Source: Gammaproteobacteria bacterium (GTDB lineage: Bacteria; Pseudomonadota; Gammaproteobacteria; Pseudomonadales; Azotimanducaceae). From it: a stretch of 59,083 bases of DNA. The notes under the pieces are model-generated. The model made no database searches and was not told the origin of the DNA. It saw nothing but the letters and a program-made list of their open reading frames with translations. This document shows, in pieces, positions 1 through 59,083 of this stretch; within the stretch, counting starts at the first letter, position 1, and each line of letters starts with the position of its first letter. Position numbers and translations under genes: made by a program. Where the stretch lies: positions 22,117 to 81,199 of the forward strand of contig PBRC01000030.1 of assembly GCA_002725285.1 (NCBI GenBank), written 5' to 3'.

Positions 1-49
1 TCTGGTCTTTTTGCTGTCCTTCAGACACTTTTTGACGTTTACTTGGTAC

Positions 50-3663: not shown

Positions 3664-6009
3664 CTACCCAGGGTCTGATTGGACCTTTTCCAGAAGCTGG
3701 CCGGTAATATTCGCATTGATGAGTTCCTGTATTTCCCCGGCAGACAGACCGAGATCTTCCGAGAGGATCTCGATACTGTGTTCGCCAATTCTGGGTGCCG
3801 GACGACTCACGACGAGTTCGCTGCTGGAGAATTGCCATGGGAATCCACCGTGCAGACAGGTTTGCAGGTCCGGATGGCTCACGGGGATGAACCACTGCTT
3901 TGCTGCGAGATGGGGGTGATCCAGGATGCGTAATATATCGAGTACTTCTTCTGCCGGAATACCTGTCGCCTGGAGTTGTTCGCTTACCTGTTCAGGTTGC
4001 CGAGACCGCGTCCAGTCTGATATCACCGAATAAAGTTGATTTGCATTCTCCTCTCGAGCCGATTCTGTGTCGTATCCGCTTAGTCCCACAATTGATTCAA
4101 AATCATTCCACTCGACCTCATTTCTGACGGAAATAGCAATCCACTTATCCAGCCCCTTGCAGGGATAGATGCCCTGTAATGCCATATCTGGGTGGTTATT
4201 ACCGTGAGAAATACTATCCGTACCGTATGAAGCAGCCAGAATGTCTTCGCCGATATAGGTGAGTGCGGCCTCAATCATCGAAGCGCTCACTGACTGTCCC
4301 TCACCGGTGATATCTCTCTGATTCAGAGCAGCCAGGGTCATTGCAGCAAGATGCATTCCCGTGATGGCATCTGCCTGATAAAAACCCATCACCATCGGTT
4401 CTTCCTGTGGATTACTAAACAGCGCATCCCAGCCAGCCAGCGCTTCAATCGTGGTGCCATTCGCCTTGTAGTTGGCATAAGGTCCTTCTTTTCCGTAGCC
4501 TGAGCAGCAGACGGAAATAATCTCTGGATTCACTGCCTGTAACACCTCGTACTGCAATCCAAATTTGTCCATGACACGCGGTGTGAAATTCTCAATAATA
4601 ATATCTGCGTCCTTGATTAATTCAAGAATCAGGGAGCGGCCCTTTTCAGTCGTTAGATCGAGGCAAAGTCCGCGTTTGTTTCGGTTGGCACCATTGAATC
4701 TGCCGCATGCGTTGAGAGGATGCGCATTGGCATTGGTGACGGCAGCCACCTCGTCTGGAGACCGAGCGCCACGCCAGACATCCGGACGCCTTAGCGATTC
4801 AATTTTGATGACATCTGCACCCAGGTCAGCAAGCAGTTGGGTTGCAAATGGACCTATCCATGCCTGCGTCAGATCAATGATGCGGATATTCTCAAGTGGG
4901 CGATTAGAACTGTTTTCGTTTGGTTCGGCTTCGATGGGAAATGAGATTCGCTGACGCCATTTAAGGTTTGGTTCCATCTTCACCGGTGCGGGTGTGCTGG
5001 CAGTATCCTCAAGCCCAGAGATGCGACCTGGCGGTCCGTTGACTTTAAGATCACCTAACTGATGATGGTGCGATCTGAAGTAGCCCGTCTCAACCAGGTG
5101 GTCATTAGTCAACGCCTCACCGGGCGTGTTCAGCAGCCCCACAGGCTGTGAGGAAGTTTCATTGAATGCCCGAAATATCGCCCGCGCGGAGGTGCCTTTT
5201 GAGTTGCTTTTCAGGAATTCTGCAACGGCAGCATCGTTCATGCGCTTCTCGGGAGTCGACACTGACTCGGGGATTGAATCCGGGTCAATATCCAGAAGCT
5301 CAAGGAGTCGATCAAAGGCTCGCTGAGATCGAAGATTGAGGGAAAGATATCCGTCGCCAATTGGAAACAACCTCACGCCAGATCCCGGTCCACCTTCGCG
5401 TTCTTCAGGTGAACCCGAGTACTGGGCACGAACAAACGGCACCATGGTGACAACCGAATCGAAGCAGGAAACATCAACGGTTTCACCAGTTCCGGTAACC
5501 TGTCTTTTGTGTAGTGCCGCGAGTGCACCGACAAAAGCAGTTACGCCGCAGTAATATCCAATCAAGTGACCGGGTGCTCGAAGGGGTGCGTGACCCATTT
5601 TACCATTCAGGGATAAGTACCCGGCACTTGCTTCAATGGTAAGTTCAGTAGCTTGCCTCGTGCTAAAGGGCCCTGTTGTCCCGAAAGGCGTGATCGAAAT
5701 GACGATAACGCCTGGTGGTTTTTCCATTCCAAGTCTGGAAAAAGGTTGATCGGTAATAATCACATCGGATGTTTCCCACAGATCTTTTGTCAATGATTCC
5801 AGACTTTGGAGGCGCTTTCGTCGATGCAGATTTTCCCAGAGCAGGGAATAGGTGCCCCCATCTTTCTTCACTGAAGGTGCTGCATCTCGGAGCGGAGATC
5901 CTGTCGTATCCTCGAGGAGTATGACATCAGAACCCCATTGGGCGAATTGTTGTCCACACCAGGCCGCGGCAATTGATGTACTGTATTCGAGGATCCTGAG
6001 CTGTTTCAT
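3664..6009 (-). CDS. fused tandem family-III CoA-transferase (CaiB/BaiF type), two modules in one 781-aa chain
   Basis: The C-terminal module has IRIIDLTQAWIGPFATQLLADLGADVIKIE and QADAITGMHLAAMTLAAL. The N-terminal module has LRILEYSTSIAAAWCGQQFAQWGSDVILLE and LIGYYCGVTAFVGALAAL. Confidence 0.8.
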   Translation of the reverse strand: MKQLRILEYSTSIAAAWCGQQFAQWGSDVILLEDTTGSPLRDAAPSVKKDGGTYSLLWENLHRRKRLQSLESLTKDLWETSDVIITDQPFSRLGMEKPPGVIVISITPFGTTGPFSTRQATELTIEASAGYLSLNGKMGHAPLRAPGHLIGYYCGVTAFVGALAALHKRQVTGTGETVDVSCFDSVVTMVPFVRAQYSGSPEEREGGPGSGVRLFPIGDGYLSLNLRSQRAFDRLLELLDIDPDSIPESVSTPEKRMNDAAVAEFLKSNSKGTSARAIFRAFNETSSQPVGLLNTPGEALTNDHLVETGYFRSHHHQLGDLKVNGPPGRISGLEDTASTPAPVKMEPNLKWRQRISFPIEAEPNENSSNRPLENIRIIDLTQAWIGPFATQLLADLGADVIKIESLRRPDVWRGARSPDEVAAVTNANAHPLNACGRFNGANRNKRGLCLDLTTEKGRSLILELIKDADIIIENFTPRVMDKFGLQYEVLQAVNPEIISVCCSGYGKEGPYANYKANGTTIEALAGWDALFSNPQEEPMVMGFYQADAITGMHLAAMTLAALNQRDITGEGQSVSASMIEAALTYIGEDILAASYGTDSISHGNNHPDMALQGIYPCKGLDKWIAISVRNEVEWNDFESIVGLSGYDTESAREENANQLYSVISDWTRSRQPEQVSEQLQATGIPAEEVLDILRILDHPHLAAKQWFIPVSHPDLQTCLHGGFPWQFSSSELVVSRPAPRIGEHSIEILSEDLGLSAGEIQELINANITGQLLEKVQSDPG

Positions 6010-6287: not shown

Positions 6288-7847
6288 GTGGTGGGGAAAG
6301 AGGATGAAAACGCTGTCGGATCTGTTTCACGTCGTGATGTCCTGAAGTCCATGGTCGTCCCGGTACTTGGCCTTGCCACCAATCGCGCAGCAGGTCAGCA
6401 AGGCGCCTCAGGTTCAAATTCACAACCAGGATTGGAGGGGCTTATGTTTCAATCTGCTGCTTCCCAGGCTCAGCAAATCCGAAATAAACAGTTAAGCAGT
6501 GAAGAACTGGTTGAACTCTACCTGCGTCGAATCGAGCAGATTAATCCAAAAATAAATGCAGTGGTGGCGATAGCAGACGATGCCATGGAGCAGGCGAGAC
6601 TTGCTGACAATGCGCTGGCGAAGGGTAAGTATAAAGGTCAGTTGCATGGTGTGCCTATGACCATCAAGGACTGTTTTGATACAGCTGGAGTAGTTTCTAC
6701 CTGGGGAACTCTGGGGCGCAGGAATTTTATTCCAGATGAAGACGCAGCCGTGGTGAAACGTCTTAAAGCTGCTGGTGCTATTCTCATCGGCAAAACGAAT
6801 ACGCCTGAATTCACGCTGTCTTTTGAAACGCATAACAAGATTCATGGTTTTACCAACAACCCTTACGACACGAAAAGATCGCCAGGCGGAAGTAGTGGTG
6901 GTGCAGCTGCTGCGATTGCTGCCGGATTGACTTCATTCGACATCGGCACTGACTATGGTGGAAGCATACGCGTCCCTTCTCATTGTTGTGGGACAGTTGG
7001 CATCAAACCAACAAGCGGGAGTGTTCCCAGAACAGGGTTGTGTCTTCCTCCGGGGATGCTAACAGATTCATTGAGTCACGTAGGACCCCTGGCTCGAAGA
7101 GTTGAAGATTTGAAACTGATATTACCTATCATCTGGGGGCCTGATTCAGTTGATACGCGAATTTCTGCGGTTCGTTTCCCAGATCCAGATTTGATCAAAT
7201 TGAAACCCTTAAAATGCGCTGTGATGTTTGATAATGGAATCGTTACGCCTGACAAAGAAACGGTGGCAGTTGTGGAAATGACGGCGAAGACACTGGCAGG
7301 TGCTGGCGTTACAGTAAATGAAGATCGACTCGATGGCGTCGCAGACACCACCAATGTGAGTGGGGGTTTCTGGGCGGTTGGTGCTCATGCATCCGTTAGA
7401 CAGCTGTTAGATTCGGTTGGGACAAGGCCTGAAGATTTCGCGAATAATTGGTTTAAAGAACTGGATGAGGTGATTCCAGATCAAGTCTCTGCAAAGGCGC
7501 TTAGCAGCCAGCTCGCAAGATTTGAAGAATATCGAGCCCGGATGCAGCAGCACATGGCTCGATACGATGTACTTATATCGCCTGTTAATGCTCATCCAGC
7601 TCAGCTTCATCCCTCGCCAGGTGAAGCTCCCTTTCCCAGCTCGGATGCGAGTTATACTGAGGCATTTGATCTGACGGGATGGCCCTCAGGTGTCGTACGT
7701 GGCGGAACAACATCAGATGGCTTGCCAATTGGTGTTCAGATCACGGCTAATCCTTGGCGAGAGGACATCGTGTTGTCGGTGATGTCATATCTGGAGCAGG
7801 AAATACCTGCGTTCGCGCCTCCGGATGAGCAGATGCTCATGGCCTAA
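6288..7847 (+). CDS. amidase-signature family amidase with a twin-arginine signal peptide
   Basis: GGSSGGAAAAIAAG is the amidase-signature Gly/Ser-rich motif, and MTIKD contains the catalytic Lys context. The N-terminal SRRDVLKSMVVPVLGLATNRAAG is Tat-like. AGGAGG lies 5 nt upstream of the GTG. Confidence 0.85.
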   Translation: MVGKEDENAVGSVSRRDVLKSMVVPVLGLATNRAAGQQGASGSNSQPGLEGLMFQSAASQAQQIRNKQLSSEELVELYLRRIEQINPKINAVVAIADDAMEQARLADNALAKGKYKGQLHGVPMTIKDCFDTAGVVSTWGTLGRRNFIPDEDAAVVKRLKAAGAILIGKTNTPEFTLSFETHNKIHGFTNNPYDTKRSPGGSSGGAAAAIAAGLTSFDIGTDYGGSIRVPSHCCGTVGIKPTSGSVPRTGLCLPPGMLTDSLSHVGPLARRVEDLKLILPIIWGPDSVDTRISAVRFPDPDLIKLKPLKCAVMFDNGIVTPDKETVAVVEMTAKTLAGAGVTVNEDRLDGVADTTNVSGGFWAVGAHASVRQLLDSVGTRPEDFANNWFKELDEVIPDQVSAKALSSQLARFEEYRARMQQHMARYDVLISPVNAHPAQLHPSPGEAPFPSSDASYTEAFDLTGWPSGVVRGGTTSDGLPIGVQITANPWREDIVLSVMSYLEQEIPAFAPPDEQMLMA

Positions 7848-7909: not shown

Positions 7910-9274
7910 ATGAAAACTGTTAGTGAAACGGCAAGAGAAATCCCCGTAATTGCTGAGACCGATATTCTGGTAGTTGGCGGTGGTCCTGCAGGCCTTGCGG
8001 CGTCTTTATCTGCGGCACGGGAGGGTGTCGAGACGATGCTTGTTGAACGATATGGCTGTTTTGGTGGAACGATCACTCAGGTAGGTGTTGGTAGTATGTC
8101 ATGGTATCGCTCTGCCGACACGGTCGATGCTGAGGGCATAGGGATTGAGTTCGAAACCCGGGCGCAGGAGATGGGGGCCGCTCAAGGCCGACCCAGGAGC
8201 TCGAGAAAGGGTGGGGTACTACTGGACACGGAGATGTTCAAAGTCGTGGCCGACAAATTGGTACAGGAAGCTGACATCAGACCGCTATTGCATAGCAAAG
8301 TAGTAGACACCGTGATGGATGGCAACATGATTCAGGGTGTAGTTATTGAAAGCAAATCAGGCAGGCAGGCGATTCTGGCCAAACGGGTGATAGATGCAAG
8401 TGGTGACGCCGATATAGCAGCATATGCTGGTGCACCTTTCGAGAAACTCCCCAAAAACGAATTGATGGGTGTCACGGTCTTATTCAGTTGTGCGGGAGTT
8501 GAAAAAGGTGCCTTCTATGAATATCTGAAGGCAAACCCGGCAACCTATAGGGACTGGGGAGAGACCTGGGAGATTGAAACGAGCGGCAAGGAGGACAACC
8601 TTCGGACATCCTATATTGCAGAACCCTTTGACAGAGCCCGTAAGGAAGGATTGATTCCTGCTGATATGCCCATCGTTGGTTCCTGTGGGCCTGTCTCTGA
8701 GACTGGCGGGAGTATAACTCTGAACATGAACTACATGTTTGGATTTGACTCAACCGATGTCTTCGACCTTACCCGGGCAGAAATTGAAGGCAGAGAACAG
8801 GCAATGTATGCCATCAAGGCGCTGAAGGCGTATGTTCCCGGATTTGAGAAAGCAAAATTGAAAAACTTTGGTATGACTCTCGGCACCCGTGACTCCAGAA
8901 AGATCGTTGGGAGGACGAACCTGACTGCAACTCACGTGAGGGAGGAAGGCAGGTCAGATGAATCAATCGGGATATTCCCGGAGTTTATTGATGGCCATGG
9001 CGTTCTTGTTCTTCCGACGACGGGTCGCTATTTTCAGGTTCCACTTGGGGTTATTGTGCCGCAGAAAGTTGAAAACCTGCTAGTCGCAGGACGATGTGTT
9101 GCAGGAGACAAGATCGCCCACGCCGCAACGCGAAGCATGATGTGTTGTGCATTGACGGGGCAGGGTGCCGGTGTAACGGCCGCGTTGTCAATCAAAAATA
9201 ATGTTGCCAGTGGTTCTGCAAGCATCGGTGAGGTTCAGACTGCCCTGAAAAATCGGGGCGTGCGGATTGATTGA
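7910..9274 (+). CDS. FAD-dependent oxidoreductase
   Basis: DILVVGGGPAGLAASLSAAREG is a dinucleotide-binding fold motif. The C-terminal GRCVAGDKIAHAATRSM is typical of the FAD_oxidored family. GGGAGG is the RBS. Confidence 0.75.
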   Translation: MKTVSETAREIPVIAETDILVVGGGPAGLAASLSAAREGVETMLVERYGCFGGTITQVGVGSMSWYRSADTVDAEGIGIEFETRAQEMGAAQGRPRSSRKGGVLLDTEMFKVVADKLVQEADIRPLLHSKVVDTVMDGNMIQGVVIESKSGRQAILAKRVIDASGDADIAAYAGAPFEKLPKNELMGVTVLFSCAGVEKGAFYEYLKANPATYRDWGETWEIETSGKEDNLRTSYIAEPFDRARKEGLIPADMPIVGSCGPVSETGGSITLNMNYMFGFDSTDVFDLTRAEIEGREQAMYAIKALKAYVPGFEKAKLKNFGMTLGTRDSRKIVGRTNLTATHVREEGRSDESIGIFPEFIDGHGVLVLPTTGRYFQVPLGVIVPQKVENLLVAGRCVAGDKIAHAATRSMMCCALTGQGAGVTAALSIKNNVASGSASIGEVQTALKNRGVRID

Positions 9275-9792: not shown

Positions 9793-11166
9793 ATGACTGA
9801 GCTACATAACCCTTTAAGAAACAGCGAGTTCAGAAAACTGTTCACGGCTCAGGTCATTGCATTGGTCGGTACTGGTCTTGCTACAGTCGCGCTGACCTTG
9901 CTTGCCTATGATATGGTTGGTGGGAATGCAGGTGTTCTGCTGGGACAGGCGCTCGCTATCAAGATGGTGGCTTATGTGGTCTTTGCTCCCATTGTTGGTG
10001 GTATTGCGCATCGTTTCAATCGAAAACCACTATTAATCACTCTGGACCTTATGCGTGCCATTATCGTATTGGCAATGCCGTTCGCCACAGAGGTCTGGCA
10101 TATCTTTGTTCTTATCTTCCTGCTCAATGTTTTCTCGGCAGGATTCAAGCCCGTCTTTCAGGCGACGATTCCGGACATCATCAACGAAGAGCAGGCGTAT
10201 ACGCGTGCGCTGTCCTTTTCTCGGTTGGCGTATGATCTGGAAAATCTTATCAGCCCGGCACTTGCGGGGCTGGCACTACTCTTCTTTACATATGACTTCC
10301 TTTTCATTTCGAACTCGATCGCCTTTTTGGTTTCTGCATCGCTCATCCTCGTTACGGTGCTGCCCGGAGGTGAGTCTGTGGATCGACTCGGCGGGTTGTG
10401 GCAGGAGATCAGTTTTGGTGTTCGTTCGTACCTTAAAACACCGCGACTCAGAGGTTTGTTAGTCCTTTATCTTGGTGTTGCCTGCACGAGTGCAATGGTC
10501 ATCGTCAATACGGTGGTGTATATCAGAGAGATCCTGCAAAGGTCAGATTCCGATGTGGCCATGGCGCTTGCTGCATCAGGCGCTGGATCCATGATTGCCG
10601 CACTGTCACTGCCAAGGGTTTTGAACCACATATCGGATCGCACCGTCATGTTGTCAGGCGCAATCATCATGAGTCTGGGGCTTATGACTATCTGGCTCTC
10701 ACCAGACTTCGTAACCCTGTTGGCAATCTGGTTTATGATTGGTCTGGGTTTGTCTCTTGTTCAGACTCCTTCAGGGCGTATTGTCAATCAATCATCAGCA
10801 CCAACGGACAGGCCATCCTATTTCTCTGCTCAGTTTGCCTTAAGTCACGCGTGCTGGATGTTAGCCTATCCTGTCGCAGGACAGCTTGGTCACTTAATCG
10901 GGATCGAAACAACCGCCTTAATGCTGGGTATTCTGGTTACGTTGTTTTCAATAGTTGCGGCGCTGGTGTGGCCCAGAAACGACCCGGAAGTTATTGAACA
11001 TAGCCATGCTGATGTCAGCCATCGGCATCAACACACTCACGATATACATCACGATCATTTTCACAATAGCGATGATGCAACAGAAGATCACAACCACCAT
11101 CATACGCCACTCACCCACTCGCATCTATTTGTTATAGACGACCATCATCCTCGCTGGCCAGAATAG
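9793..11166 (+). CDS. MFS transporter with a histidine-rich C-terminal tail
   Basis: The protein is multi-TM throughout (FRKLFTAQVIALVGTGLATVALTLLAY...). The C-terminal ~58 aa HSHADVSHRHQHTHDIHHDHFHNSDDATEDHNHHHTPLTHSHLFVIDDHHPRWPE contain 17 His. The start is taken at the first ATG, because the TTG at 9745 overlaps the palindrome. Confidence 0.8.
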   Translation: MTELHNPLRNSEFRKLFTAQVIALVGTGLATVALTLLAYDMVGGNAGVLLGQALAIKMVAYVVFAPIVGGIAHRFNRKPLLITLDLMRAIIVLAMPFATEVWHIFVLIFLLNVFSAGFKPVFQATIPDIINEEQAYTRALSFSRLAYDLENLISPALAGLALLFFTYDFLFISNSIAFLVSASLILVTVLPGGESVDRLGGLWQEISFGVRSYLKTPRLRGLLVLYLGVACTSAMVIVNTVVYIREILQRSDSDVAMALAASGAGSMIAALSLPRVLNHISDRTVMLSGAIIMSLGLMTIWLSPDFVTLLAIWFMIGLGLSLVQTPSGRIVNQSSAPTDRPSYFSAQFALSHACWMLAYPVAGQLGHLIGIETTALMLGILVTLFSIVAALVWPRNDPEVIEHSHADVSHRHQHTHDIHHDHFHNSDDATEDHNHHHTPLTHSHLFVIDDHHPRWPE

Positions 11167-35491: not shown

Positions 35492-36610
35492 TCAGCTGTC
35501 ATAAGCGGCCGAAATCATAGCCTGCACATTTTCAAGCTTTGCATTCTCAGGAATATCGCATCCGGATTGAAGAATAAAACCCTCCCTGCCAACTTGCCGG
35601 ATGAGGCGTGAGCAGTATTCATAGACATCGTCCGGAGTGCTGTTAAACAGCATCACTGATGGCACGTCACCCATCAGGCAGATGTGATCGTTAAGGATTT
35701 CCCTGGCTCTGAAGATATCGGTCTTGCCATCCAGAGCCATGATCACTTTACCCTTTGGCAGTTCTCTGAAACGTGCCAGTTCCCTGTCCCAGCAGGAATC
35801 AAGGTGCAGAATGGGGATCAGGCCCTGTTCGATAACCTCTTCGATAAGGGCGCGAAGGTACTGCCAGACAAATCTTTCCCACATATCCGGTGAAAGCATT
35901 TCTGGTGCGGAACGCCAACCGCCAACCCATACACAGGGAAATCCCTGTCTTTTTACGGATTTGCAGGTTGATTCATAAAGATACGGCATCATATGAGCCA
36001 TTACCTCATCCAGTTTCTCCGGGCAGGTCATCAGGTCCAGGAAAAAGTTCTCAAGGGACCTCGCCCCACAAAGGTATTCAAACGGAGGTGCCACATCCCC
36101 ACCAGAAAGGACGGGAATGCCAATTTTCTGCCAGGATCCAATAACGTCTGGCTTGTGCTGATTTCTGGGCCAGTACTGAGTGGGTACATCATTCAGCACC
36201 CTGGTGTCCTGAAATTCACGATAGAATGTTGGCCAGCCTTTATCCAAAATGGTGTCGTAGTCATCCGCCGTCATCAGTTCGGTTTCATCCACCTGGTACG
36301 AAACGTTTTCCGGCAGATCGACTCCCGGCACTTTGATTTTTGAAAGCCAGATGTTGGACAGCATATAGGGCGAGAAATTGCCGTAGTTGATTGCGTCGGC
36401 TGGGGTATTCTCCGAGACAATCTGAAAGGCCTCGATCATCACAGCCACCGCACGGTCCATGCTAAGTAAAAACTCAGACTGGGGTGTATCGGTCAGACGT
36501 GCTGCAAAGGCGCAGTATTCCAACACCACTGGAACCCTGTCAGGGGTTTCAAGAGCTACAGCCTGCGTAATGCGTCTCATCCGTTCTGTCGTTGTCTCTT
36601 TCTTTGTCAA
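35492..36610 (-). CDS. uroporphyrinogen decarboxylase (URO-D) family protein, MtaA/methyltransferase-like
   Basis: The sequence shows ETPDRVPVV near the N-terminus, ILHLDSCWDREL and a C-terminal ILQSGCDIPENAKLENVQAMISAA. The TTG start at 36610 is uncertain, and an alternative ATG lies at 36580. Confidence 0.7.
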   Translation of the reverse strand: MTKKETTTERMRRITQAVALETPDRVPVVLEYCAFAARLTDTPQSEFLLSMDRAVAVMIEAFQIVSENTPADAINYGNFSPYMLSNIWLSKIKVPGVDLPENVSYQVDETELMTADDYDTILDKGWPTFYREFQDTRVLNDVPTQYWPRNQHKPDVIGSWQKIGIPVLSGGDVAPPFEYLCGARSLENFFLDLMTCPEKLDEVMAHMMPYLYESTCKSVKRQGFPCVWVGGWRSAPEMLSPDMWERFVWQYLRALIEEVIEQGLIPILHLDSCWDRELARFRELPKGKVIMALDGKTDIFRAREILNDHICLMGDVPSVMLFNSTPDDVYEYCSRLIRQVGREGFILQSGCDIPENAKLENVQAMISAAYDS

Positions 36611-39063: not shown

Positions 39064-39407
39064 AAGTAAGTTGTGCTTACTCCGCTTCGTCGTCTTCCTG
39101 ACCGTAGCTTGAATCAATTCTTACGATGTCAGTCGTGATTTTCTTGAATCTTCCTGCTGGGCCCAGTTTGAAGCCTTGATCAGAAAGATTTTTGTATTGT
39201 CATAATCATCGAGCTGGAAATGGATGTGTCCACGCCAGTCATTGAGGTTAGAACTGAAGGGCATCAATTGATAAACCGCGGTGATGAGTTGCAGTGCTTC
39301 GTCCAGACGGGAGCCAAATCCTGGATGTCTCACACTTCCCTGTACTTTCCTTGAAACCCCGGCTTCTGATACCCTTGGATGTACTGTTGCTTCTTGGGTC
39401 GAAGAGC

Positions 39408-40682
39408 ATGGCTAATATTCAATTTGACGATCGTCTTAAGAACCTCAAAGGTTTATTCCCCGAGACCCCGGATACAATTATTCTCAAAGCTGATGTGCTT
39501 CGTGAAGGTATTAGCTTCAGTCCAGAAATGGCCGAAGCCGGGAGTTGGTCGCTACCTGGCGCCGCCTTCCTCAGCCGGGAGGCCATTCCAGATCGAGAAA
39601 GTTACGGTGCCGACGCTCGTGTACCCAATCAGATGATCCTTGAGGATGACACGCGCATTAATACAGAGCTTGAACAGATCAGCCCCTATGTCATTCGTGG
39701 AAACAGGGAATCTGGTTATTCATTGTGTAGAAATGATATGCCCATTACACCGATTAAGTTTACTGAACGGCCCGTGTTTGACCACGAACTTTCAGACGGT
39801 TCTCCGGTGGCGAGAGCACTTGGCCAAAGGGCAGAGCACTGCGCTGCTATTGTACACACGGTATTTTGTGAATATGGCAGAGACAGTATGGAGTGCACAT
39901 ACTGTTTTCTCGGGAATGTGCAAACACCAAGGATTCTTGAAACGGGGCAGCATTTAAAAGGCACCAGTCACAATCGCACTATCGAAGCTTGCGCGGCAGC
40001 AGCGAAGCTGTTCCGGTTGGATCATGTAGTTGTTAGTGGTGGTGCTTTTGTAGATACCGATCTGGAAGTAAAGTCCTACGTCAAAACCATATCGGCGCTG
40101 CGAAAGGCAGTGGGTCCTGATACACGCATCACTGCCGTGTGTCAGGCATTCGATGAAGCAGGATGGAGAGCGCTGAAAGAAGCTGGCGCCAGTCGCGTAC
40201 AGCCAAATCTTGAAGTATGGGATGAAGAACTCTGGTCCAGGGTGATTCCGGGAAAAGAAAAGGCTATTGGTAAAACCCGTTGGATGGAAGGACTAAAGCA
40301 GGCAGTTGACGTATTCGGTGTGGGTGAAGTCGCCAGTAGTTTTGTCGGTGGTATTGAACTCTGTGATCCACGCATTGCCTACACCGAGGATAAGGCAGTG
40401 GATTCTGCCAGAGCAGCATATGATTCGCTGCTGGAGAAGCAGATTGTGCCAATGTTCGGCATGCTTACCAAAGCTCGTGGTACGCGTTATGAGCATGTTG
40501 ACCTGCCCCCTACTGAGTACTACTTACGACTAGGTTGGGAGAGGACATCCATGATGATCCAGGCAGCTATGTTTGATCAGTATTCAGGTGGCGTGGATTC
40601 GGATTTTTCATGTTATAAATGTGTCAGTCATAAGATCTGTCAGGACTACCCCCGTTTGATGGAACTAAACAATAATTCCTGA
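39408..40682 (+). CDS. radical-SAM-like (BioB/HydE-type barrel) protein with a non-canonical CX8CX2C motif and a ~165-aa N-terminal extension
   Basis: FCEYGRDSMECTYCFLGN is followed by HVVVSGGAFVD (GGE-like), NLEVWDEELWSRVIPGKEKAIG and SSFVGGIEL. The order and spacing resemble radical SAM core motifs. The start is set at ATG 39408. Confidence 0.45.
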   Translation: MANIQFDDRLKNLKGLFPETPDTIILKADVLREGISFSPEMAEAGSWSLPGAAFLSREAIPDRESYGADARVPNQMILEDDTRINTELEQISPYVIRGNRESGYSLCRNDMPITPIKFTERPVFDHELSDGSPVARALGQRAEHCAAIVHTVFCEYGRDSMECTYCFLGNVQTPRILETGQHLKGTSHNRTIEACAAAAKLFRLDHVVVSGGAFVDTDLEVKSYVKTISALRKAVGPDTRITAVCQAFDEAGWRALKEAGASRVQPNLEVWDEELWSRVIPGKEKAIGKTRWMEGLKQAVDVFGVGEVASSFVGGIELCDPRIAYTEDKAVDSARAAYDSLLEKQIVPMFGMLTKARGTRYEHVDLPPTEYYLRLGWERTSMMIQAAMFDQYSGGVDSDFSCYKCVSHKICQDYPRLMELNNNS

Positions 40683-41410: not shown

Positions 41411-41659
41411 TTAATCCAGGAATTGATCCACGAGAAAACTCTTGATTACTTCTGATGCGCGCATCGTCTCACCGTTAACGGTTAAAGTCGGTACGATTGA
41501 ATCGCCACAGAGAGCAATCAATTCGTTTTTGAACTCTTTTTCTTGAATGTCTTTTTGTGTGACTCGATCAGAAATATCGAGATTTCTGATGGTATTGAGC
41601 ACACTTTTAGAAAAACCGCATTCTTGAGAAAAGTAGAGTTCCAGCTGCGGATCAGCCAT
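41411..41659 (-). CDS. glutaredoxin-like thioredoxin-fold protein with a monothiol CGFS motif
   Basis: 82 aa. The sequence has LELYFSQECGFSKSV (the active-site position after beta1), a cis-Pro context VPTLTVNGE, and an ATG overlapping the upstream stop codon by 8 nt (ATGGCTGA). Confidence 0.7.
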   Translation of the reverse strand: MADPQLELYFSQECGFSKSVLNTIRNLDISDRVTQKDIQEKEFKNELIALCGDSIVPTLTVNGETMRASEVIKSFLVDQFLD

Positions 41660-42119
41660 TTACCTTCCTGCATTCATTGAGCAGATCCTCTGCTTTACGT
41701 AATCCGGGTATACCTGCGGATTCCGCATACTGCACAGTACCGTCCTTATCAATAATAATCGTCGCTCTGTCGGTTATCCCCTTGTCGTCATGGTAAACAC
41801 CAAAACTGGTTGCAACCGCGCCTTTTGGGTGAAAGTCCGCCAGTAAAGGGAAAGAAATTCCCCCCAGAGAGCTGGCCCAATTATCATGTGAGAACTTGCT
41901 ATCTACGCTGATACCCAAGACTTGGGTATCTGCCGATTTAAAATCTTCAAGATTCGCCTGAAGATCCGGCATTTCAGTGCTTCAGTTAGGTGTCCAATCG
42001 AGGGGATAGAATACTAACATTACGTTCTTCTCTCCCTTGAATTGAGCTAACGAATAGCTCTTATCAGCCAATTGAGAATCAAGTTCAAAATCGGGTGCTG
42101 TGGTTCCTACTTCTATCAT
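41652..42119 (-). CDS. peroxiredoxin (BCP/PrxQ-like) with in-frame UGA at the peroxidatic Cys position; candidate selenoprotein
   Basis: ORFs 41982..42170 and 41652..41972 share one frame. Read-through gives MIEVGTTAPDFEL..VMLVFYPLDWTPN-U-STEMPDL..DRATIIIDKDG. AGGAGG lies 6 nt upstream of ATG 42119. The TGA is at 41982..41984. Confidence 0.7.
41941..41967 (-). promoter_or_regulatory. SECIS-like stem-loop 14 nt downstream of the in-frame UGA
   Basis: The mRNA segment GGAUCUUCAG-GCGAAUC-UUGAAGAUUU forms 7 Watson-Crick plus 3 G-U pairs. The 7-nt apical loop starts with G and begins 24 nt after the UGA. Confidence 0.5.
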
Positions 42120-44928: not shown

Positions 44929-46191
44929 TCAACGATACTGATCTAGTGCTTTAAGCAGGGCGATGATGTTTTCCACCGGCGTTCTTGCTTGGATATTGTG
45001 GATCGCGTCAAAGACGAAACCACCATCCTTGCTGAAGATCTCACATCGTTCGCTGACTTCATCATAGACTTGATCCGGTGTGCCAAATGGGAGCGTATTC
45101 TGAGTATCCACACCACCACCCCAGAAGACAAGGTCGCTGCCATAGTTGTCCTTGAGCTGCTTTGGATCCATACCAGCGGCTGAACATTGAACCGGATTGA
45201 TAATGTCGAAACCTGATTCGATAAAATGTGGCATAAACATCTCTACAGCGCCGCACGAGTGTTTGAATGTTTTCCAGTCCGTGTTTCTGTGGATCCAGTC
45301 ATTGATTTCCTTGTAATAGGGTGACCAGAGTTCATCAAAAGTCTCCGTGCTGCAGAAACTGCTTGTCTGGGTCCCAAAATCTGTTCCGCAGATAAAAACC
45401 ACATCGACCAGGTTGCCAACCTGTTGCCAGATCTTATCCAGATTGCTGAGCGCTATCTCACATTGCTTTGAATAGATTTCGTGTACATAGCCCTGGCGAA
45501 TCGCGGTCGTGATATACCATTCTTCGATGTCGCGAATTCCCCTTGGATTGACAAGATTGGGGGCTGGCACGAGCGCAATGTCACCAAAAGCGGTCCCGCC
45601 GAAAGTTGCGACAACGGCTTTGCCACTCATGGAAGCCTGTTCCACCTCCTTCTTAAAATGAGCGAGATCAATATCAGAGATCTCACCGAACTCCTCGAGG
45701 TTATCATTGACATCGAGGTTGTCCTCATCGACAGGAGGCTGGCGGATGATGGTATCGAAGAAGAAACCACTTACCGGCAGGCGTCCGCTCGCTTCAGCAG
45801 TCAGGTCACCTTTTGGGTAGATAAAGGTATCACCCTTGTCATCAATCGTGGTCTTGAATTCTGTGGAAACCAGTACTTCCTGGCCCCATGGCGTCCTGTA
45901 TTTCCGCCATTGCTCGTTGGGGAATCCGAACATTGTTTCTCTCGGATAAATACCGACGGTATCAATGCCAATTGCCTCTTTTAGTAACTCATCGACTTCT
46001 CCCAGCATCTGATAAGGCTCAATCACCTTAACTGGATCGTTAGGCAGATCAAAGTGCCGATGCAGGTTCTCGATACAGGACACGTGAATACCGGTGACCG
46101 CAGTACTGCCAAAATCGACAGGTATTGCCGCTCCCTGCTCGTGATTTAGGGCTTGTCTGACTTTTTCTTTTGAATTCATAGCACCATTCAT
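44929..46191 (-). CDS. uroporphyrinogen decarboxylase (URO-D) family protein, MtaA/methyltransferase-like
   Basis: 420 aa. The sequence shows FKHSCGAVEMFMPHFIESGFDIINPVQCSAAGMDP and VFWGGGVDTQNTLPFGTPDQVYDEV, matching the C-terminal half of the URO-D barrel pattern. Confidence 0.7.
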   Translation of the reverse strand: MNGAMNSKEKVRQALNHEQGAAIPVDFGSTAVTGIHVSCIENLHRHFDLPNDPVKVIEPYQMLGEVDELLKEAIGIDTVGIYPRETMFGFPNEQWRKYRTPWGQEVLVSTEFKTTIDDKGDTFIYPKGDLTAEASGRLPVSGFFFDTIIRQPPVDEDNLDVNDNLEEFGEISDIDLAHFKKEVEQASMSGKAVVATFGGTAFGDIALVPAPNLVNPRGIRDIEEWYITTAIRQGYVHEIYSKQCEIALSNLDKIWQQVGNLVDVVFICGTDFGTQTSSFCSTETFDELWSPYYKEINDWIHRNTDWKTFKHSCGAVEMFMPHFIESGFDIINPVQCSAAGMDPKQLKDNYGSDLVFWGGGVDTQNTLPFGTPDQVYDEVSERCEIFSKDGGFVFDAIHNIQARTPVENIIALLKALDQYR

Positions 46192-54622: not shown

Positions 54623-55150
54623 TTATTGGTGGGTCCGACTTGCGTCGGCGCTGCTAGCATACATTTTCGCTAGTGCCTTCATGACGATCGTGGATTGTTG
54701 CGGCGTTGCCGAGATCATTTGGTCGGGCCAGTTCTCACTGCCCAAATCCTCCAGTAGCGACAAGACATAGTTTTTGTTATCAATGGTGGTGAAATGACAG
54801 CAGGGGATGATGACACCGGGATCATTTACTTGCAGATTGAAGCAGACTTCCCTTTTTACCAGATGCTGAAGCGCTTCTGGTACAGAGGAGCCATCTGTAA
54901 ATTTGCCAACGAATGTGGTTGGCACATCCACTGTTTGCGAATATTGCACGGCAAATCGGTACAGACTACTGGTAAAGCCAACGTCTGCTGCAATCTGTTT
55001 CCAGTCGACACTTATCAGGCTGGTTTCTGGACCAATGGTATCACCACGCCTCAGGGTATCTGTTAACCAATCATTAGTGATGAATTCGGGGTTTATGGAA
55101 ATTGAGCTGGCATATTCTTGGTTTGGATAGAGGGGCTGTGAGTGCTTCAA
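54623..55150 (-). CDS. N-terminal lobe only of an APH/ecdysteroid-kinase-like phosphotransferase (probably truncated)
   Basis: NDWLTDTLRRGDTIGPETSLISVDWKQIAADVGFTSSLYRFAVQY..PTTFVGKF resembles the N-lobe of this kinase family. The ORF stops at 175 aa, right after LAKMYA, where the catalytic lobe should begin. The TTG start overlaps the upstream stop codon (TTGA). Confidence 0.4.
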   Translation of the reverse strand: MKHSQPLYPNQEYASSISINPEFITNDWLTDTLRRGDTIGPETSLISVDWKQIAADVGFTSSLYRFAVQYSQTVDVPTTFVGKFTDGSSVPEALQHLVKREVCFNLQVNDPGVIIPCCHFTTIDNKNYVLSLLEDLGSENWPDQMISATPQQSTIVMKALAKMYASSADASRTHQ

Positions 55151-56643
55151 GCAATCGCCAGACTACGCCGCAGTGATCTCCCGGACCTTGCGCCAGTATG
55201 TTCACCCTCGTTAATAACCTGTACGCCATTGACAAACAAATGATGAATCCCCTCTGGGTAATGGTTGGGGTCGGCAAACGTACCCTTGTCTACAATGGAA
55301 TTTTGATCAAACACCACCAGATCTGCAAAGGTGCCCTGGTGAAGTTCTCCTCGGTCTGTCAGGCCGAATTTCCTTGCAGAAAGTCCGGTCATTTTGTGGA
55401 TTGCCGTTTCCAGTTTAAACAAACCAAGATCACGAGAGTAGTGACCAAGAACACGTGCAAAAGACCCATAGAGCCGGGGATGTGGTTTACCTTCCAGGGT
55501 AGGTATGCCATCTGATCCGATCATTGTACTGGGATGCTGCATCACCGTCTGAACATCGTCTTCATCCATGCTGTGTAGTACAACGGTTGCACCCGGTTCT
55601 TGCGCCAGGATAGCCTCGGCCGTCTCCTGGGGGGATTGACCAAATGATGTCGCCAGCTCTGCGATGGATTGGCCTTCCCATTCCTGATGGCTTTCGGTGG
55701 AGGCCAATACAATTCCTTCGGCATCCATATCCCCCAGGCCACCACCTTCGCGATCAAGCCCGCCCTGTTGGATGGTTGCCGATAAGATGGTGCTGCCAGC
55801 AGTATAGGGATACTGATCGGCGTGCACATCAATATTACGCTGTTGGGCGTCCTCGATCAGTTTAAGCGACTCTTTAACCAGCCCCCAGCTTTTTCGGCCC
55901 GCAGCCTTATGATGTGAAATCTGAATTCCAACACCTGCAGATTGACCGATCTGAATTGCCTCCTCAAGGGATTGCAGGAGTTCCGTTCCTTCATTCCGCA
56001 TGTGGGTGGTGTACAGAGCCCCGGTGCCCTCCATAATTGAAGCGAGTTCAATCAGCTCATCAGTATCCGCGTGCCGACCCGGGTCATAGATAAGACCTGA
56101 CGACAGTCCAAGCACGCCAGCCTCAAGACCTTCCTGTAGAAGCTTTTTCATGTGCCCCATTTCATCTGCCGTGGGTGTTCGGGCTTCATTACCCATAACG
56201 GCCATTCTGATGGTGCCGTGACCAGCGAGTGCGCCGATGTTTATACTCGGGCTGTGACTGTCAATGTAGTTCAGGTAGCCGTTGTATCCAGACCAATCCG
56301 GTAGCACGGCATGAGGATGAAATGCTCGTGCCAGTAATGCTGCCTGGGGACAGGGAGCTGCTCCCATTCCACAGTTTCCGACGACACAGCTGGTGACACC
56401 ACCCATGGCTTTGAATGACATATCAGGATGGAGAATTGCGGCGAAATCATCATGAGTGTGAACATCAATAAATCCAGGGGCAACTGCCAGACCATTCAGA
56501 TCTATCTCCCTGTCACTATTGCCTGGCACAGTTCCGACGGAAGTAATTCTGTCTTTAGTGATGCCGATATCACCTTCGTAGGGAGCATTCCCCTTACCAT
56601 CAAAGATTTTTGCGTTACGAAGGACGAGTGTCTGGTGAGTCAT
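55147..56643 (-). CDS. D-aminoacylase (N-acyl-D-amino-acid deacylase) family amidohydrolase
   Basis: The N-terminus is LVLRNAKIFDG, followed by VAPGFIDVHTHDD and later ISHHKA. The length and the C-terminal beta-sandwich pattern (ADLVVFD) fit the family. Confidence 0.85.
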   Translation of the reverse strand: MTHQTLVLRNAKIFDGKGNAPYEGDIGITKDRITSVGTVPGNSDREIDLNGLAVAPGFIDVHTHDDFAAILHPDMSFKAMGGVTSCVVGNCGMGAAPCPQAALLARAFHPHAVLPDWSGYNGYLNYIDSHSPSINIGALAGHGTIRMAVMGNEARTPTADEMGHMKKLLQEGLEAGVLGLSSGLIYDPGRHADTDELIELASIMEGTGALYTTHMRNEGTELLQSLEEAIQIGQSAGVGIQISHHKAAGRKSWGLVKESLKLIEDAQQRNIDVHADQYPYTAGSTILSATIQQGGLDREGGGLGDMDAEGIVLASTESHQEWEGQSIAELATSFGQSPQETAEAILAQEPGATVVLHSMDEDDVQTVMQHPSTMIGSDGIPTLEGKPHPRLYGSFARVLGHYSRDLGLFKLETAIHKMTGLSARKFGLTDRGELHQGTFADLVVFDQNSIVDKGTFADPNHYPEGIHHLFVNGVQVINEGEHTGARSGRSLRRSLAIA

Positions 56644-56914
56644 GCCAAATTCTCTTTAAGGTCTTTTTCCATGCGCCATAGTAGTTGTCTCGATAGCGGG
56701 AGCGCAACTATGAGAATAACCAGATCTGTGATCAAAACGACGACTGGTTGTTGCACATCTGTCAATGAATGTGATCGTTCTGAAGTGATTGTTGGCTGTA
56801 AACAGGATAGCGACTCAAACAGCCCCGACGATTCAGTGGCGCTTCACTGAAAATCGTGGTTTATTCTTCCTAACGGTTTTAGCTATAGTTGCACGGAAGA
56901 AGAAGTAATAATAA

Positions 56915-57451
56915 ATGAAGCGCAGGGAGATCATCGCAGCATTGGGTGCATTTACGATTGGGATAAAACCCGTTCGAGGTGCAAAACCAGATCGGATCAA
57001 ACCACAAGTTGGTGATGTTCTGGTCCATGCCTTTGGTGAAAAGGCGGGCGTTGTGATTCAGTCTGATGATATTGAAACGGATCGTGTATTTGCTTTTCCA
57101 ATGTCACCTGAGGGCGTGGTTCGACGCGGTTCACTGCACAACCAGGTTACTTTGCTGCGACTGGATGAATCATTGATGTCCGTCAAAACAAAACGGCATG
57201 CAGCCGGGCCGATTCTCGCCGTATCCGCTGCCTGTACTCATACGGGTTGTGAAGTCAGCGGCTGGGAGCCTGAGACAAATGAACTCGTCTGCCCTTGCCA
57301 CGGATCTCGTTTTGATGTCCTCGATGCTTCCAGGGTTCTTCTGGGACCTGCTGCAAAGCCACTCGCGTTGCTGCCTATTGCGAATATCGAGGGGTCATTT
57401 CAGGTTACGGGGAAATTCTCCAGACGTGTGGGTCCTGAACCTGCCTTTTAG
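56915..57451 (+). CDS. Rieske [2Fe-2S] domain protein with a Tat-type signal
   Basis: CTHTGCEV-x15-CPCHGSRFD matches the CxH...CxxH Rieske motif. The N-terminus is MKRREIIAALGAFTIGIKPVRGA. Confidence 0.85.
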   Translation: MKRREIIAALGAFTIGIKPVRGAKPDRIKPQVGDVLVHAFGEKAGVVIQSDDIETDRVFAFPMSPEGVVRRGSLHNQVTLLRLDESLMSVKTKRHAAGPILAVSAACTHTGCEVSGWEPETNELVCPCHGSRFDVLDASRVLLGPAAKPLALLPIANIEGSFQVTGKFSRRVGPEPAF

Positions 57452-57479
57452 AACACTTATATACGATATGGGGGAACCT

Positions 57480-59083
57480 ATGAAAGTACTCTTAATCATT
57501 GCGGGCTTGTTGGCGGTTACCAGTATATTTGCTGCAGACTATTCGCCTGTCACAAGTGCAAGACTCGCAAACCCGGAACCAGAAAACTGGCTGATGTATC
57601 GGCGCACCTATGATTCGCACGGATACAGTCCACTGAAGGAGATTACCAGCCGAAATGTCAAGAAGTTAAAACCTCTATGGTCTTTTTCTACGGGTTTGCG
57701 AGAGGGTCATCAGTCGCCGCCTGTTGTAAATGGTGGTTTCATGTTTATTACCACACCGCACAACCACCTTCTGGCACTCAATGCAGAATCAGGTGAAATG
57801 CTCTGGCGATATATTCGCGAATTGCCGGAGGATCAGGTGCAGATGCATCCCACCAACCGGGGTGTTGGTTTGTATGGAGATCTGGTCTTCATGGCGACCG
57901 TAGACTGTTACGTCGTCGCACTCGATGCCACAACCGGTGAGGTTGTCTGGGAAACCGAAGTAGAAGACTATACCAACGGTTACTATATGACACTCGCACC
58001 CCTGGTGGCGGATGGTAATGTCATGGTAGGTGTTTCCGGCGGTGAGTTCGGTATTCGTGGTTTTGTCATGGCGCTGGATGCAAAGACGGGAAAACTGGCA
58101 TGGAAGACTTATACGATCCCGGCGCCGGGAGAGCCTGGCAGCAGTTCCTGGCCGGGTGATTCATGGAAAACCGGTGGTGTTCCTGTCTGGATTACCGGCT
58201 CCTATGACGTCGCAACCGGGTTAAGTTACTGGGGGACAGGTAACGGCGGTCCCTGGATGGGAGATACTCGTGGTGGCGATAATCTTTACGCCACCTCGGT
58301 GATGGCGTTGGATGTCAAAACCGGCGAGATCAGGGGACATCATCAATATCACTGGAACGATTCCTGGGACTGGGATGAAGTTTCCGCCCCGCTTCTGATT
58401 GATTTCAAGCGAGACGGAGAAACCATCAGTGGAATGATTCATCCTGCAAGAAACGGTTATCTGTGGTTTCTTGAAAGGCAAAGTAATGGCATCGGCTTCG
58501 TTGATGCGAAGCCTTATGTGAAGCAGGACGTTTTTACGTCGATTGATCCAAAGACCGGCAGACCCAGCTACGATGAGACTAAGAAACCGGGCACGGGTAA
58601 GGGGGCAACTTTTTGTCCATCCCACTGGGGTGGTAAAGATTGGCCACCTGCCGCATTCAGCCCAAAAACTCGACTGCTCTACATTCCAGCCAACGACAAT
58701 GTCTGCGCTTATATGATCGGTGAAGATGTGGAATACAGGCAAGGCCGTGAATTCATCGGGACAGACTGGCAGGCGTCAAATCTTGTATTGGCTGACGAGG
58801 CCAGCGATTATATTGGTGAGTTGCAGGCCTGGAATGTCGACACCGGTACGAAAGTCTGGAGCCGGAAATTCAAGAGTCAGAATTGGGGGCCTGTCCTCGC
58901 GACTGCAGGTAACCTGGTATTTATGGGTGGCACCAATGACCGAAAGTTCAGAGCATTTAATGCTAAGACCGGCAAGCTGCTCTGGGAGCAGCGGACCAAT
59001 TCCGGGATAACCGGCGTTCCTTCAACCTACGAAGTCGGTGGCAAGCAATATGTTGCCGTCCTGTCGGGCTGGGGGGTAGATGC
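57480..59083 (+). CDS. PQQ-dependent dehydrogenase, methanol/ethanol family (partial, runs off the window end)
   Basis: This frame is not in the supplied ORF track because no stop codon is reached. I translated it by hand: signal peptide MKVLLIIAGLLAVTSIFAA, then NWLMYRRTYDSHGYSPL, VSGGEFGIRGF, YWGTGNGGPW, HWNDSWDWDEV, CPSHWGGKDW, and VLSGWGVD at the edge. GGGGGA precedes ATG 57480. Confidence 0.85.
   Translation, partial: MKVLLIIAGLLAVTSIFAADYSPVTSARLANPEPENWLMYRRTYDSHGYSPLKEITSRNVKKLKPLWSFSTGLREGHQSPPVVNGGFMFITTPHNHLLALNAESGEMLWRYIRELPEDQVQMHPTNRGVGLYGDLVFMATVDCYVVALDATTGEVVWETEVEDYTNGYYMTLAPLVADGNVMVGVSGGEFGIRGFVMALDAKTGKLAWKTYTIPAPGEPGSSSWPGDSWKTGGVPVWITGSYDVATGLSYWGTGNGGPWMGDTRGGDNLYATSVMALDVKTGEIRGHHQYHWNDSWDWDEVSAPLLIDFKRDGETISGMIHPARNGYLWFLERQSNGIGFVDAKPYVKQDVFTSIDPKTGRPSYDETKKPGTGKGATFCPSHWGGKDWPPAAFSPKTRLLYIPANDNVCAYMIGEDVEYRQGREFIGTDWQASNLVLADEASDYIGELQAWNVDTGTKVWSRKFKSQNWGPVLATAGNLVFMGGTNDRKFRAFNAKTGKLLWEQRTNSGITGVPSTYEVGGKQYVAVLSGWGVD

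Follow-up and report, generated by a model that had tools for sequence, protein, structure and literature searches.

A Rieske gene paired with a lanthanide-type PQQ dehydrogenase gene across bacterial phyla suggests an iron–sulfur electron acceptor for a quinoprotein

Introduction

Which protein takes up the electrons of a soluble pyrroloquinoline quinone (PQQ) dehydrogenase when no cytochrome c is encoded beside it? The question is raised by the end of a 59,083-nucleotide (nt) stretch of DNA, here called the window, from a gammaproteobacterium of the Azotimanducaceae (assembly GCA_002725285.1, contig PBRC01000030.1, positions 22,117 to 81,199 of the forward strand). In the window, a gene for a Rieske [2Fe-2S] protein with a predicted twin-arginine translocation (Tat) signal stands 28 nt upstream of a gene for a PQQ dehydrogenase of the methanol/ethanol family. 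The known acceptors of the quinoprotein family are cytochrome cL, XoxG, c550 (PedF/ExaB) and fused haem domains, and ubiquinone for the membrane glucose dehydrogenase. An initial annotation, made from the letters of the window, proposed the Rieske protein as a possible non-cytochrome acceptor, and the comparative sequence analysis described here supports that interpretation. The Rieske protein is probably the dedicated electron acceptor of the neighboring dehydrogenase, because its gene is paired directly upstream of the enzyme gene in approximately 120 loci that represent four or more bacterial phyla. A direct functional link of some kind between the two proteins is very likely.

Results

Architecture of the Rieske–PQQ gene pair

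The two genes lie on the same strand and run to the end of the window, as initially annotated. Their features are as follows (window positions).

56915..57451, plus strand: Rieske gene, 178 residues; Pfam PF00355; bc-type (Thermus/QcrA-like) fold, predicted to be periplasmic
56915..56983, plus strand: predicted Tat signal peptide MKRREIIAALGAFTIGIKPVRGA, with putative export and cleavage
57233..57250, plus strand: box I, C107-T-H109-T-G-C112; predicted cluster ligands Cys107 and His109, disulfide Cys112; columns invariant in the alignment of 24 Rieske homologues
57290..57301, plus strand: box II, C126-P-C128-H129; predicted cluster ligands Cys126 and His129, disulfide Cys128
57452..57479, plus strand: 28-nt spacer AACACTTATATACGATATGGGGGAACCT; its Shine-Dalgarno-like GGGGGA (57470-57475) is a candidate ribosome-binding site for the PQQ gene
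57480..59083, plus strand: PQQ dehydrogenase gene, 5' 1604 nt (534 of 563 codons), the rest lying past the window end; TIGR03075
57846..57854, plus strand: H123-P-T125 in place of the vicinal Cys-Cys ring; His and Thr invariant in the clade
58368..58376, plus strand: D297-W-D299, predicted catalytic-base Asp and the extra lanthanide-type Asp, from the PedH alignment

The start codon of the Rieske open reading frame (ORF) is unambiguous, as the first ATG past an in-frame TAA, and a purine-rich Shine-Dalgarno-like run (GGAAGAAGAAG) precedes it by 9-19 nt. No terminator-like site is found in the 28-nt spacer between the two genes. A wider promoter and terminator scan around the pair returned fewer sites than the shuffled expectation and is silent on an operon either way.

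The Rieske protein matches PF00355 with an E value of 6.7e-10 and 39 bits (cutoff 20.3 bits), and its two cluster boxes, CTHTGC (residues 107–112) and CPCH (residues 126–129), bear out the Rieske motif initially annotated. Box II is followed by G-S-R-F-D and then by a Pro loop, G-P-A-A-K-P-L-A. In the alignment of 24 homologues, C112, C128 and the Ser after CPCHG are invariant, and the Pro loop (G-P-A-x-K-P-L-A) and the extreme C-terminal tail F-S-R-R-V-G-P-E-P are conserved. The CxHxGC...CxCH signature is retained by 106 of the 109 PQQ-paired Rieske homologues. The best match in a sequence search of the PDB is the soluble domain of the Thermus thermophilus Rieske protein (1NYK/3FOU; E 1e-23, residues 29–175), followed by actinobacterial QcrA. 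An AlphaFold2 model built on the same alignment has a mean predicted local distance difference test score of 87 overall and above 93 at residues 31–170. Foldseek places 1NYK first for this model (TM score 0.85), then mycobacterial QcrA, b6f PetC and the arsenite oxidase subunit AioB. Judged by both cluster boxes and the predicted fold, the window protein is a Rieske [2Fe-2S] protein, and its two disulfide cysteines and Pro loop assign it by sequence to the respiratory (bc1/b6f) type.

The leader begins with MKRREIIAAL. Both R3 and R4 have a conservation of 90% or more across the Rieske family, and an in-frame RR in an RR-x-hydrophobic-L-K context occurs in 109 of 109 full-length members, in line with the twin-Arg leader described earlier. 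The hydrophobic stretch of the leader spans only ∼13 residues and is therefore too short to serve as a membrane anchor. The protein is not a complex III subunit, because this segment is short, the NCBIfam complex III and b6f models (QcrA, PetC and proteobacterial Rieske) all score far under their cutoffs (for example, 93 versus 275 bits), and no cytochrome b gene is present in any locus examined around the Rieske gene. No NCBIfam model names this Rieske family, and public annotation labels its homologues as generic Rieske proteins or as 'ubiquinol-cytochrome c reductase iron-sulfur subunit'. In Rieske proteins of the Gemmatimonadota type (L060, L061 and L094-L099), the RR pair stands ahead of a lipobox-like L-x-[GD]-C and of a long linker rich in Pro and Glu, which hints at a Tat-exported, lipid-tethered protein.

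The downstream ORF scores 562 bits against TIGR03075, the NCBIfam methanol/ethanol family (cutoff 480 bits). Its complete gene is found on a longer contig (L001:10566-12257) and encodes a protein of 563 residues, of which residues 1-18 (MKVLLIIAGLLAVTSIFA, followed by ADY) form a predicted Sec-type signal peptide, consistent with the signal peptide noted in the initial annotation. With a Tat leader on the Rieske protein and a Sec leader on the enzyme, both are predicted to reach the same compartment. The nearest solved structure is PedH (6zcv; 354 bits), the lanthanide-dependent ethanol dehydrogenase of Pseudomonas putida, with which the PQQ and metal ligand motifs line up: GGEFG (E189), GTGN (N255), W-D-W-D (D297) and R-N-G. 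The sequence S-W-D-W-D-E-V is invariant among 73 genome and 80 metagenome orthologues. An additional Asp two residues past the catalytic Asp (D-x-D) is the mark of lanthanide-dependent enzymes (PMC11996626). By this motif the window enzyme is of the lanthanide type and probably uses a lanthanide.

At the position of the vicinal Cys-Cys ring, 'q-mHPTNRG' of the window enzyme stands opposite 'pcCDVINRG' of PedH. The ring is absent from all 73 genome and all 80 metagenome orthologues, which carry x-H-x-T-[NS]-R-G instead. A search of 1.84 billion cluster representatives sets the boundary of the clade at ∼55% identity. In the closest outgroups (45-48% identity), the ring is either kept (P0246, P0248 and P0250) or lost in another way (P0256).

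Conservation of the pair across phyla

The pairing was assessed from both sides, with key synteny counts made by tblastn and neighboring genes called by a heuristic ORF selection that takes account of third-codon-position GC content. From the Rieske side, Rieske-only patterns from the 24-homologue alignment were scanned against a single genome for each GTDB species, which gave 79 loci. Their hosts belong to Gammaproteobacteria (Pseudomonadales, Azotimanducaceae, Pseudohongiellaceae), Gemmatimonadota, Binatia and a number of Acidobacteriota orders. An orthologous PQQ gene lies downstream in 69 of these 79 species-representative genomes: directly downstream on the same strand in 66 loci (58-83% identity), within 1.2-1.6 kb of the Rieske gene in two, and cut by a contig end with the Rieske gene upstream in one. 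From the enzyme side, enzyme-only patterns from 16 diverse aligned PQQ orthologues were scanned against metagenome contigs, yielding 80 loci, of which 71 have enough upstream DNA to assess. A Rieske gene lies directly upstream in 52 of the 71. The synteny in related genomes, which had been put forward as a check on the proposal, is thus seen in both directions.

In total, 118 Rieske–PQQ pairs were collected, with a median gap of 77 nt and gaps below 250 nt in 113. The adjacency is beyond chance because the same arrangement recurs in 118 independent loci. The pairwise identities of the Rieske and PQQ proteins track each other (r = 0.81), a correlation for which shared ancestry alone would suffice.

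The genes flanking the pair vary by lineage. In many Pseudomonadales, a serine hydroxymethyltransferase (SHMT) gene lies divergently upstream (L018, L027-L033, L035, L037, L042, L049, L050, L052 and L170) and a PhyH-family dioxygenase gene directly downstream (L017, L022, L023, L025, L036, L046 and L171). Amidohydro_3 is the neighbor in the window organism and in Gemmatimonadota, and unrelated genes flank the pair elsewhere. The SHMT, PhyH and amidohydrolase neighbors may give clues to the pathway that the enzyme serves. The only invariant unit across lineages is the Rieske gene plus the PQQ gene. Neither a cytochrome c gene beside the 118 pairs nor a XoxJ/MxaJ/PedG-like gene near them is conserved.

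Co-retention was checked genome-wide in two complete chromosomes in which the pair is split, two of the ten unpaired Rieske cases. Both genes are kept in both. In the first, the ancestral order of SHMT followed by Rieske–PQQ–PhyH has been divided into SHMT with PQQ and Rieske with PhyH; in the second, SHMT stands with Rieske and PQQ with PhyH.

One-electron carriers beside related enzymes

Relatives of the window enzyme show which proteins are encoded at the position of the Rieske gene. The enzyme gene of the in-clade subgroup P0242 (57% identity, with the H-P-T and S-W-D-W-D-E motifs) is preceded directly by a gene for a 508-residue protein (L173:2404-3930) that occupies the Rieske position. 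The C-terminus of this protein is a cytochrome c domain (CASCH) connected by a Gln-rich linker. Its N-terminal part resembles an SMP30-type propeller by eye, no family search having been run. In P0241 (1075 residues), the same cytochrome-bearing architecture is fused to an in-clade PQQ dehydrogenase. The ring-less sister clade P0256 has a 126-residue cytochrome c encoded directly downstream. In the ring-bearing clade P0250 (45% identity), a gene for a homologous Tat Rieske protein lies 39 nt upstream of the enzyme gene, and its 202-residue product is 33% identical to the window Rieske protein (E 1e-23). Two further members of this second Rieske family stand ahead of H-P-T-type enzymes. The arrangements of P0242, P0241, P0256 and P0250 indicate that the enzyme-adjacent slot holds a one-electron carrier, either a cytochrome or a Rieske protein. 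This shared occupancy is the strongest indirect support for an acceptor role.

The Cys-Cys disulfide ring has been tied to electron transfer to c550 (PMC12997753), and its absence had been cited as an argument for a Rieske partner. The absence itself is confirmed by the PedH alignment, which shows MHPT at this position, and the argument fails. Ring loss is not diagnostic of a Rieske partner because a ring-bearing clade (P0250) has a Rieske gene and ring-less relatives use cytochrome c or a fused haem. Rieske-less members of the window clade are ring-less as well, and ring loss was rejected as a correlate of the partner type.

Members of the second Rieske family also occur away from PQQ genes on Acidobacteria-like contigs, in tandem (L183:6001-6612 and 6840-7439) and singly (L179:4001-4597), among genes for DNA ligase, RNase T, HIT and S1 proteins. 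In L050, three Rieske paralogues (3933-4358, 8034-8573 and 10001-10477) lie within 6 kb before one PQQ gene.

Proposed electron path

The two genes are best explained, from their sequences and conservation, as a conserved bicistronic module for periplasmic substrate oxidation. The dehydrogenase would be exported unfolded through the Sec pathway. In the periplasm it would bind PQQ and probably, to judge from its D-x-D motif, a lanthanide, and would oxidize an alcohol or aldehyde substrate. The Rieske protein would gain its [2Fe-2S] cluster in the cytoplasm, be exported folded through the Tat pathway and then be released or, possibly in Gemmatimonadota, anchored by a lipid. We infer from the sequences that the two proteins interact physically and that electrons flow from the enzyme to the Rieske protein: PQQH2 would be reoxidized by the Rieske centre in two one-electron steps, the role that cytochrome cL, XoxG or c550 has in known family members. 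The Rieske protein would then pass the electrons on, for example to a cytochrome of the c type, a cupredoxin or a terminal oxidase, and thereby to the respiratory chain.

The potential of PQQ/PQQH2 lies near +90 mV, and that of bc-type Rieske centres that have both the disulfide and the hydrogen bond from Ser is about +100 to +300 mV. The step from PQQH2 to the Rieske centre would be downhill because these Rieske potentials exceed that of PQQ/PQQH2. By analogy, the respiratory-type features of the window protein would give it a positive potential suited to the electrons of PQQH2. CPCHGSRF ends in Phe at the position of the bc1 Tyr, a difference expected to make the potential somewhat lower.

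Dedicated acceptor or general carrier

Several observations weigh against a dedicated acceptor. In 10 of the 79 Rieske loci, no PQQ gene is found within 10 kb, and in 19 of the 71 assessable PQQ-clade loci, no Rieske gene is found within 4 kb. Two PQQ subclades are entirely Rieske-less (5 of 5 and 3 of 3 assessable loci), and the other Rieske-less cases are scattered singles. A substitute partner was sought at the 19 Rieske-less loci; they have no common neighbor, and any nearby CxxCH ORF is present in only four. Other genes of the second Rieske family are orphaned amid housekeeping genes, and the carrier may thus serve more than a single enzyme. No Rieske–PQQ fusion occurs among 150 cluster representatives, versus 39 of the 150 with fused haem domains, in enzymes with or without the ring. 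The use of Tat for the Rieske protein and Sec for the enzyme plausibly disfavors such a fusion. Finally, the open-access literature yielded no precedent for a quinoprotein that donates to a Rieske centre.

The orphan Rieske genes fit the possibility that the Rieske protein is a general periplasmic carrier, comparable to a soluble cytochrome c or a cupredoxin, that serves several dehydrogenases or acts further down the chain. The occurrence of both unpaired Rieske and unpaired PQQ genes and the three paralogues before a single PQQ gene in L050 also fit this role, and marine Pseudomonadales can harbor dozens of lanthanide PQQ enzymes (PMC11996626). However, the adjacency to one orthologous PQQ clade is 73-87% across phyla, which is far tighter than a shared carrier predicts. 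The correlated identities of the two proteins (r = 0.81) point the same way, though common ancestry could yield the same value. A general carrier is therefore unlikely, and the Rieske protein as dedicated acceptor remains the preferred reading.

A cytochrome encoded elsewhere or beyond the window

The initial annotation had observed that no CxxCH protein is visible upstream of the pair. This extends to the whole 59-kb window, where no ORF of at least 80 residues in any frame contains a CxxCH motif. The genes past the window end, which had been suggested for inspection, could be read from other assemblies: the assembly collection contains the exact Rieske protein in 328 blocks, the majority of them from marine metagenomes and metagenome-assembled genomes. 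Positioned 175 nt past the PQQ gene is a gene whose 720-residue product joins a cytochrome c domain (CVACH) at the N-terminus to a second PQQ propeller (L001:12432-14594).

This haem domain, or a c-type cytochrome encoded elsewhere, could be the true acceptor, with the Rieske protein in an accessory role (protection or repair, assembly, regulation). A cytochrome c or a quinone is the acceptor for every characterized family member, and redox 'relay' accessory proteins are known beside other PQQ enzymes (PMC12997753). In-clade relatives have cytochrome partners or fusions, and a haem-bearing PQQ protein is encoded close by in the window species itself. Against this, the 720-residue gene is not found beside the orthologous Rieske–PQQ pairs of other lineages, and three of the ten retrieved places (L003, L004 and L008; L003:12335-16158) have a 4.4-kb insert that splits it from the pair. 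The 720-residue protein was thus rejected as the cognate cytochrome; its domains and distribution make it a quinohaemoprotein-like enzyme complete in itself, as opposed to a cytochrome partner conserved with the first enzyme. No cytochrome gene is conserved near the pair, and the cytochrome-bearing gene of P0242 replaces the Rieske gene and does not accompany it. An accessory Rieske protein beside a cytochrome acceptor is accordingly rather unlikely, and the inspection of the downstream genes leaves the Rieske protein as the favored acceptor.

The second propeller of the 720-residue protein carries a D-L-D motif, and its N-terminal haem arrangement is common to many relatives in the representative library. 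Classical type II quinohaemoproteins have their haem domain at the C-terminus. The 4.4-kb insert, which varies between strains, contains a 500-residue ORF, two small proteins (111 and 105 residues) whose first 17 residues are ∼70% identical to each other, and a HAMP-guanylate cyclase. The 500-residue ORF is integrase-like by eye, no family search having been run, and the insert looks like a mobile element.

Stable complex or hitch-hiking gene

The Rieske protein and the dehydrogenase could also form a stable heterodimer, a two-subunit 'quino-iron-sulfur' enzyme comparable to AioAB, instead of an enzyme with a diffusible carrier. This is a variant of the acceptor explanation, from which it differs in stoichiometry but not in the path of the electrons. 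The tight coupling of the genes, the AioB-type Rieske subunits among the structural matches and the conserved C-terminal tail F-S-R-R-V-G-P-E-P are compatible with it. The enzyme, however, has its own Sec signal and so is not co-exported with the Rieske protein as AioA is, split pairs and orphan genes exist, and the Gemmatimonadota Rieske protein is apparently tethered by a long Pro-rich linker. A stable heterodimer is improbable on these grounds.

It is highly improbable that the adjacency reflects shared regulation or genomic hitch-hiking with no functional link, for instance of a spare bc-type subunit, for although complex III/b6f Rieske subunits give the best matches by sequence and homologues are automatically annotated as such ('ubiquinol-cytochrome c reductase iron-sulfur subunit'), no cytochrome b gene lies nearby, the hydrophobic segment lacks the length of an anchor, the NCBIfam complex III models score far under cutoff (93 versus 275 bits), and synteny in four phyla amid otherwise unrelated flanks is hard to explain without a function.

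Surroundings of the pair in the window

Two features precede the pair.

56644..56914: divergent intergenic region between the amidohydrolase and Rieske genes, presumed to be the promoter region
55147-56643, minus strand: amidohydrolase gene (Pfam Amidohydro_3, D-aminoacylase-like), divergent and upstream of the Rieske gene

Because the amidohydrolase gene lies on the opposite strand, the Rieske gene is the first in a plus-strand unit of its own; it is not the tail of a different upstream operon, a possibility that could have undone the initial proposal. Amidohydro_3 genes also stand divergently upstream of the Rieske gene in Gemmatimonadota loci (L060:8017-9666 on the minus strand, and L061) and near unpaired Rieske genes in L014-L016. 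Their products may belong to the same pathway as the pair, or the genes may have been transferred in the same block. An ORF of 175 residues (54623-55150, minus strand) shares 4 nt with the start of the amidohydrolase gene. Pfam gives no match for this ORF, but it is called in each of the ten related contigs and appears to be a conserved gene.

A Pfam scan of the remaining window genes found ordinary catabolic functions and no cytochrome, pqq biosynthesis or lanthanide-uptake genes. Two URO-D-family and two radical SAM genes are present (35492-36610, minus strand; 44929-46191, minus strand; 39294-40682, plus strand; 11-1210, plus strand), together with genes for a CoA-transferase, an amidase, acyl-CoA carboxylase subunits, a penicillin amidase and an ADP-forming acyl-CoA synthetase. 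A 106-residue AhpC/TSA ORF (41652-41972, minus strand) covers only profile positions 45-123 and looks N-terminally truncated, unless its start is miscalled.

Discussion

The window pair shares its general layout with the known PedH/PedE–PedF, ExaA–ExaB, XoxF–XoxG and MxaFI–cytochrome cL systems. Their enzymes, like that of the window, are eight-bladed PQQ propellers of the same NCBIfam family, and in each system a small redox protein is encoded beside the enzyme and both act in the periplasm. The neighbor in these systems is a c-type cytochrome (XoxG, cytochrome cL or PedF/ExaB), whereas that of the window enzyme is a Tat-type [2Fe-2S] Rieske protein, and the Cys-Cys ring of Ped-type enzymes contrasts with the invariant H-x-T motif of the window clade. 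Type II quinohaemoprotein alcohol dehydrogenases carry their one-electron acceptor in cis, as a C-terminal haem c, whereas the candidate acceptor of the window enzyme is a separate iron–sulfur gene product.

On the Rieske side, the closest known proteins are the Thermus Rieske protein (1NYK/3FOU) and actinobacterial QcrA, which have the CTHxGC and CPCH boxes, the Pro loop and a G-x-F-x-x-x-V-G-P tail in common with the window protein. These relatives are membrane-anchored subunits of quinol:cytochrome c oxidoreductases and are encoded beside cytochrome b. Unlike them, the window protein has a short Tat leader of the cleavable type, no cytochrome b neighbor and a quinoprotein as its genetic partner. 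A comparable system is arsenite oxidase AioAB, in which a Tat-exported Rieske small subunit passes electrons to cytochrome c or azurin. AioAB is likewise a periplasmic oxidoreductase with a bc-type Rieske exit and a Tat signal; for the window pair, this electron exit is proposed by analogy. The two systems differ in the catalytic partner, a molybdopterin subunit that hitch-hikes on the Tat signal of the Rieske subunit in AioAB and a PQQ propeller with its own Sec signal in the window, and the sequence similarity between the window Rieske protein and AioB is low (E about 5e-6).

Lanthanide-type PQQ dehydrogenases have been reported to be common and highly diverse in the ocean (PMC11996626), and soil Acidobacteria and Gemmatimonadetes contain related XoxF systems (PMC10875860). 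Neither of these studies names a Rieske or iron–sulfur partner, and recent surveys of lanthanide PQQ enzymes are likewise silent on iron–sulfur partners. In the open-access literature, no paper was found that links a Rieske protein with a PQQ dehydrogenase, nor was a curated family found for the pairing. What is new here is the type of redox partner proposed for a quinoprotein oxidation module.

For marine Gammaproteobacteria and for soil Acidobacteriota, Gemmatimonadota and Binatia, we lean cautiously towards a soluble or lipid-tethered Tat Rieske protein as the primary acceptor of this large, environmentally abundant, lanthanide-type PQQ clade. The pairing can serve as an annotation rule for Rieske genes that are now mislabelled 'ubiquinol-cytochrome c reductase iron-sulfur subunit'. 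If the acceptor role is true, the module would be the first iron–sulfur, haem-independent exit from a quinoprotein and the first respiratory-type Rieske role outside quinol oxidase complexes and molybdoenzymes. It would also be a large exception to the textbook rule that soluble quinoprotein alcohol dehydrogenases donate to a dedicated c-type cytochrome. Heterologous assays of the clade would then need the Rieske protein in place of cytochrome c or dyes, and the point at which these electrons enter the respiratory chain would have to be re-examined.

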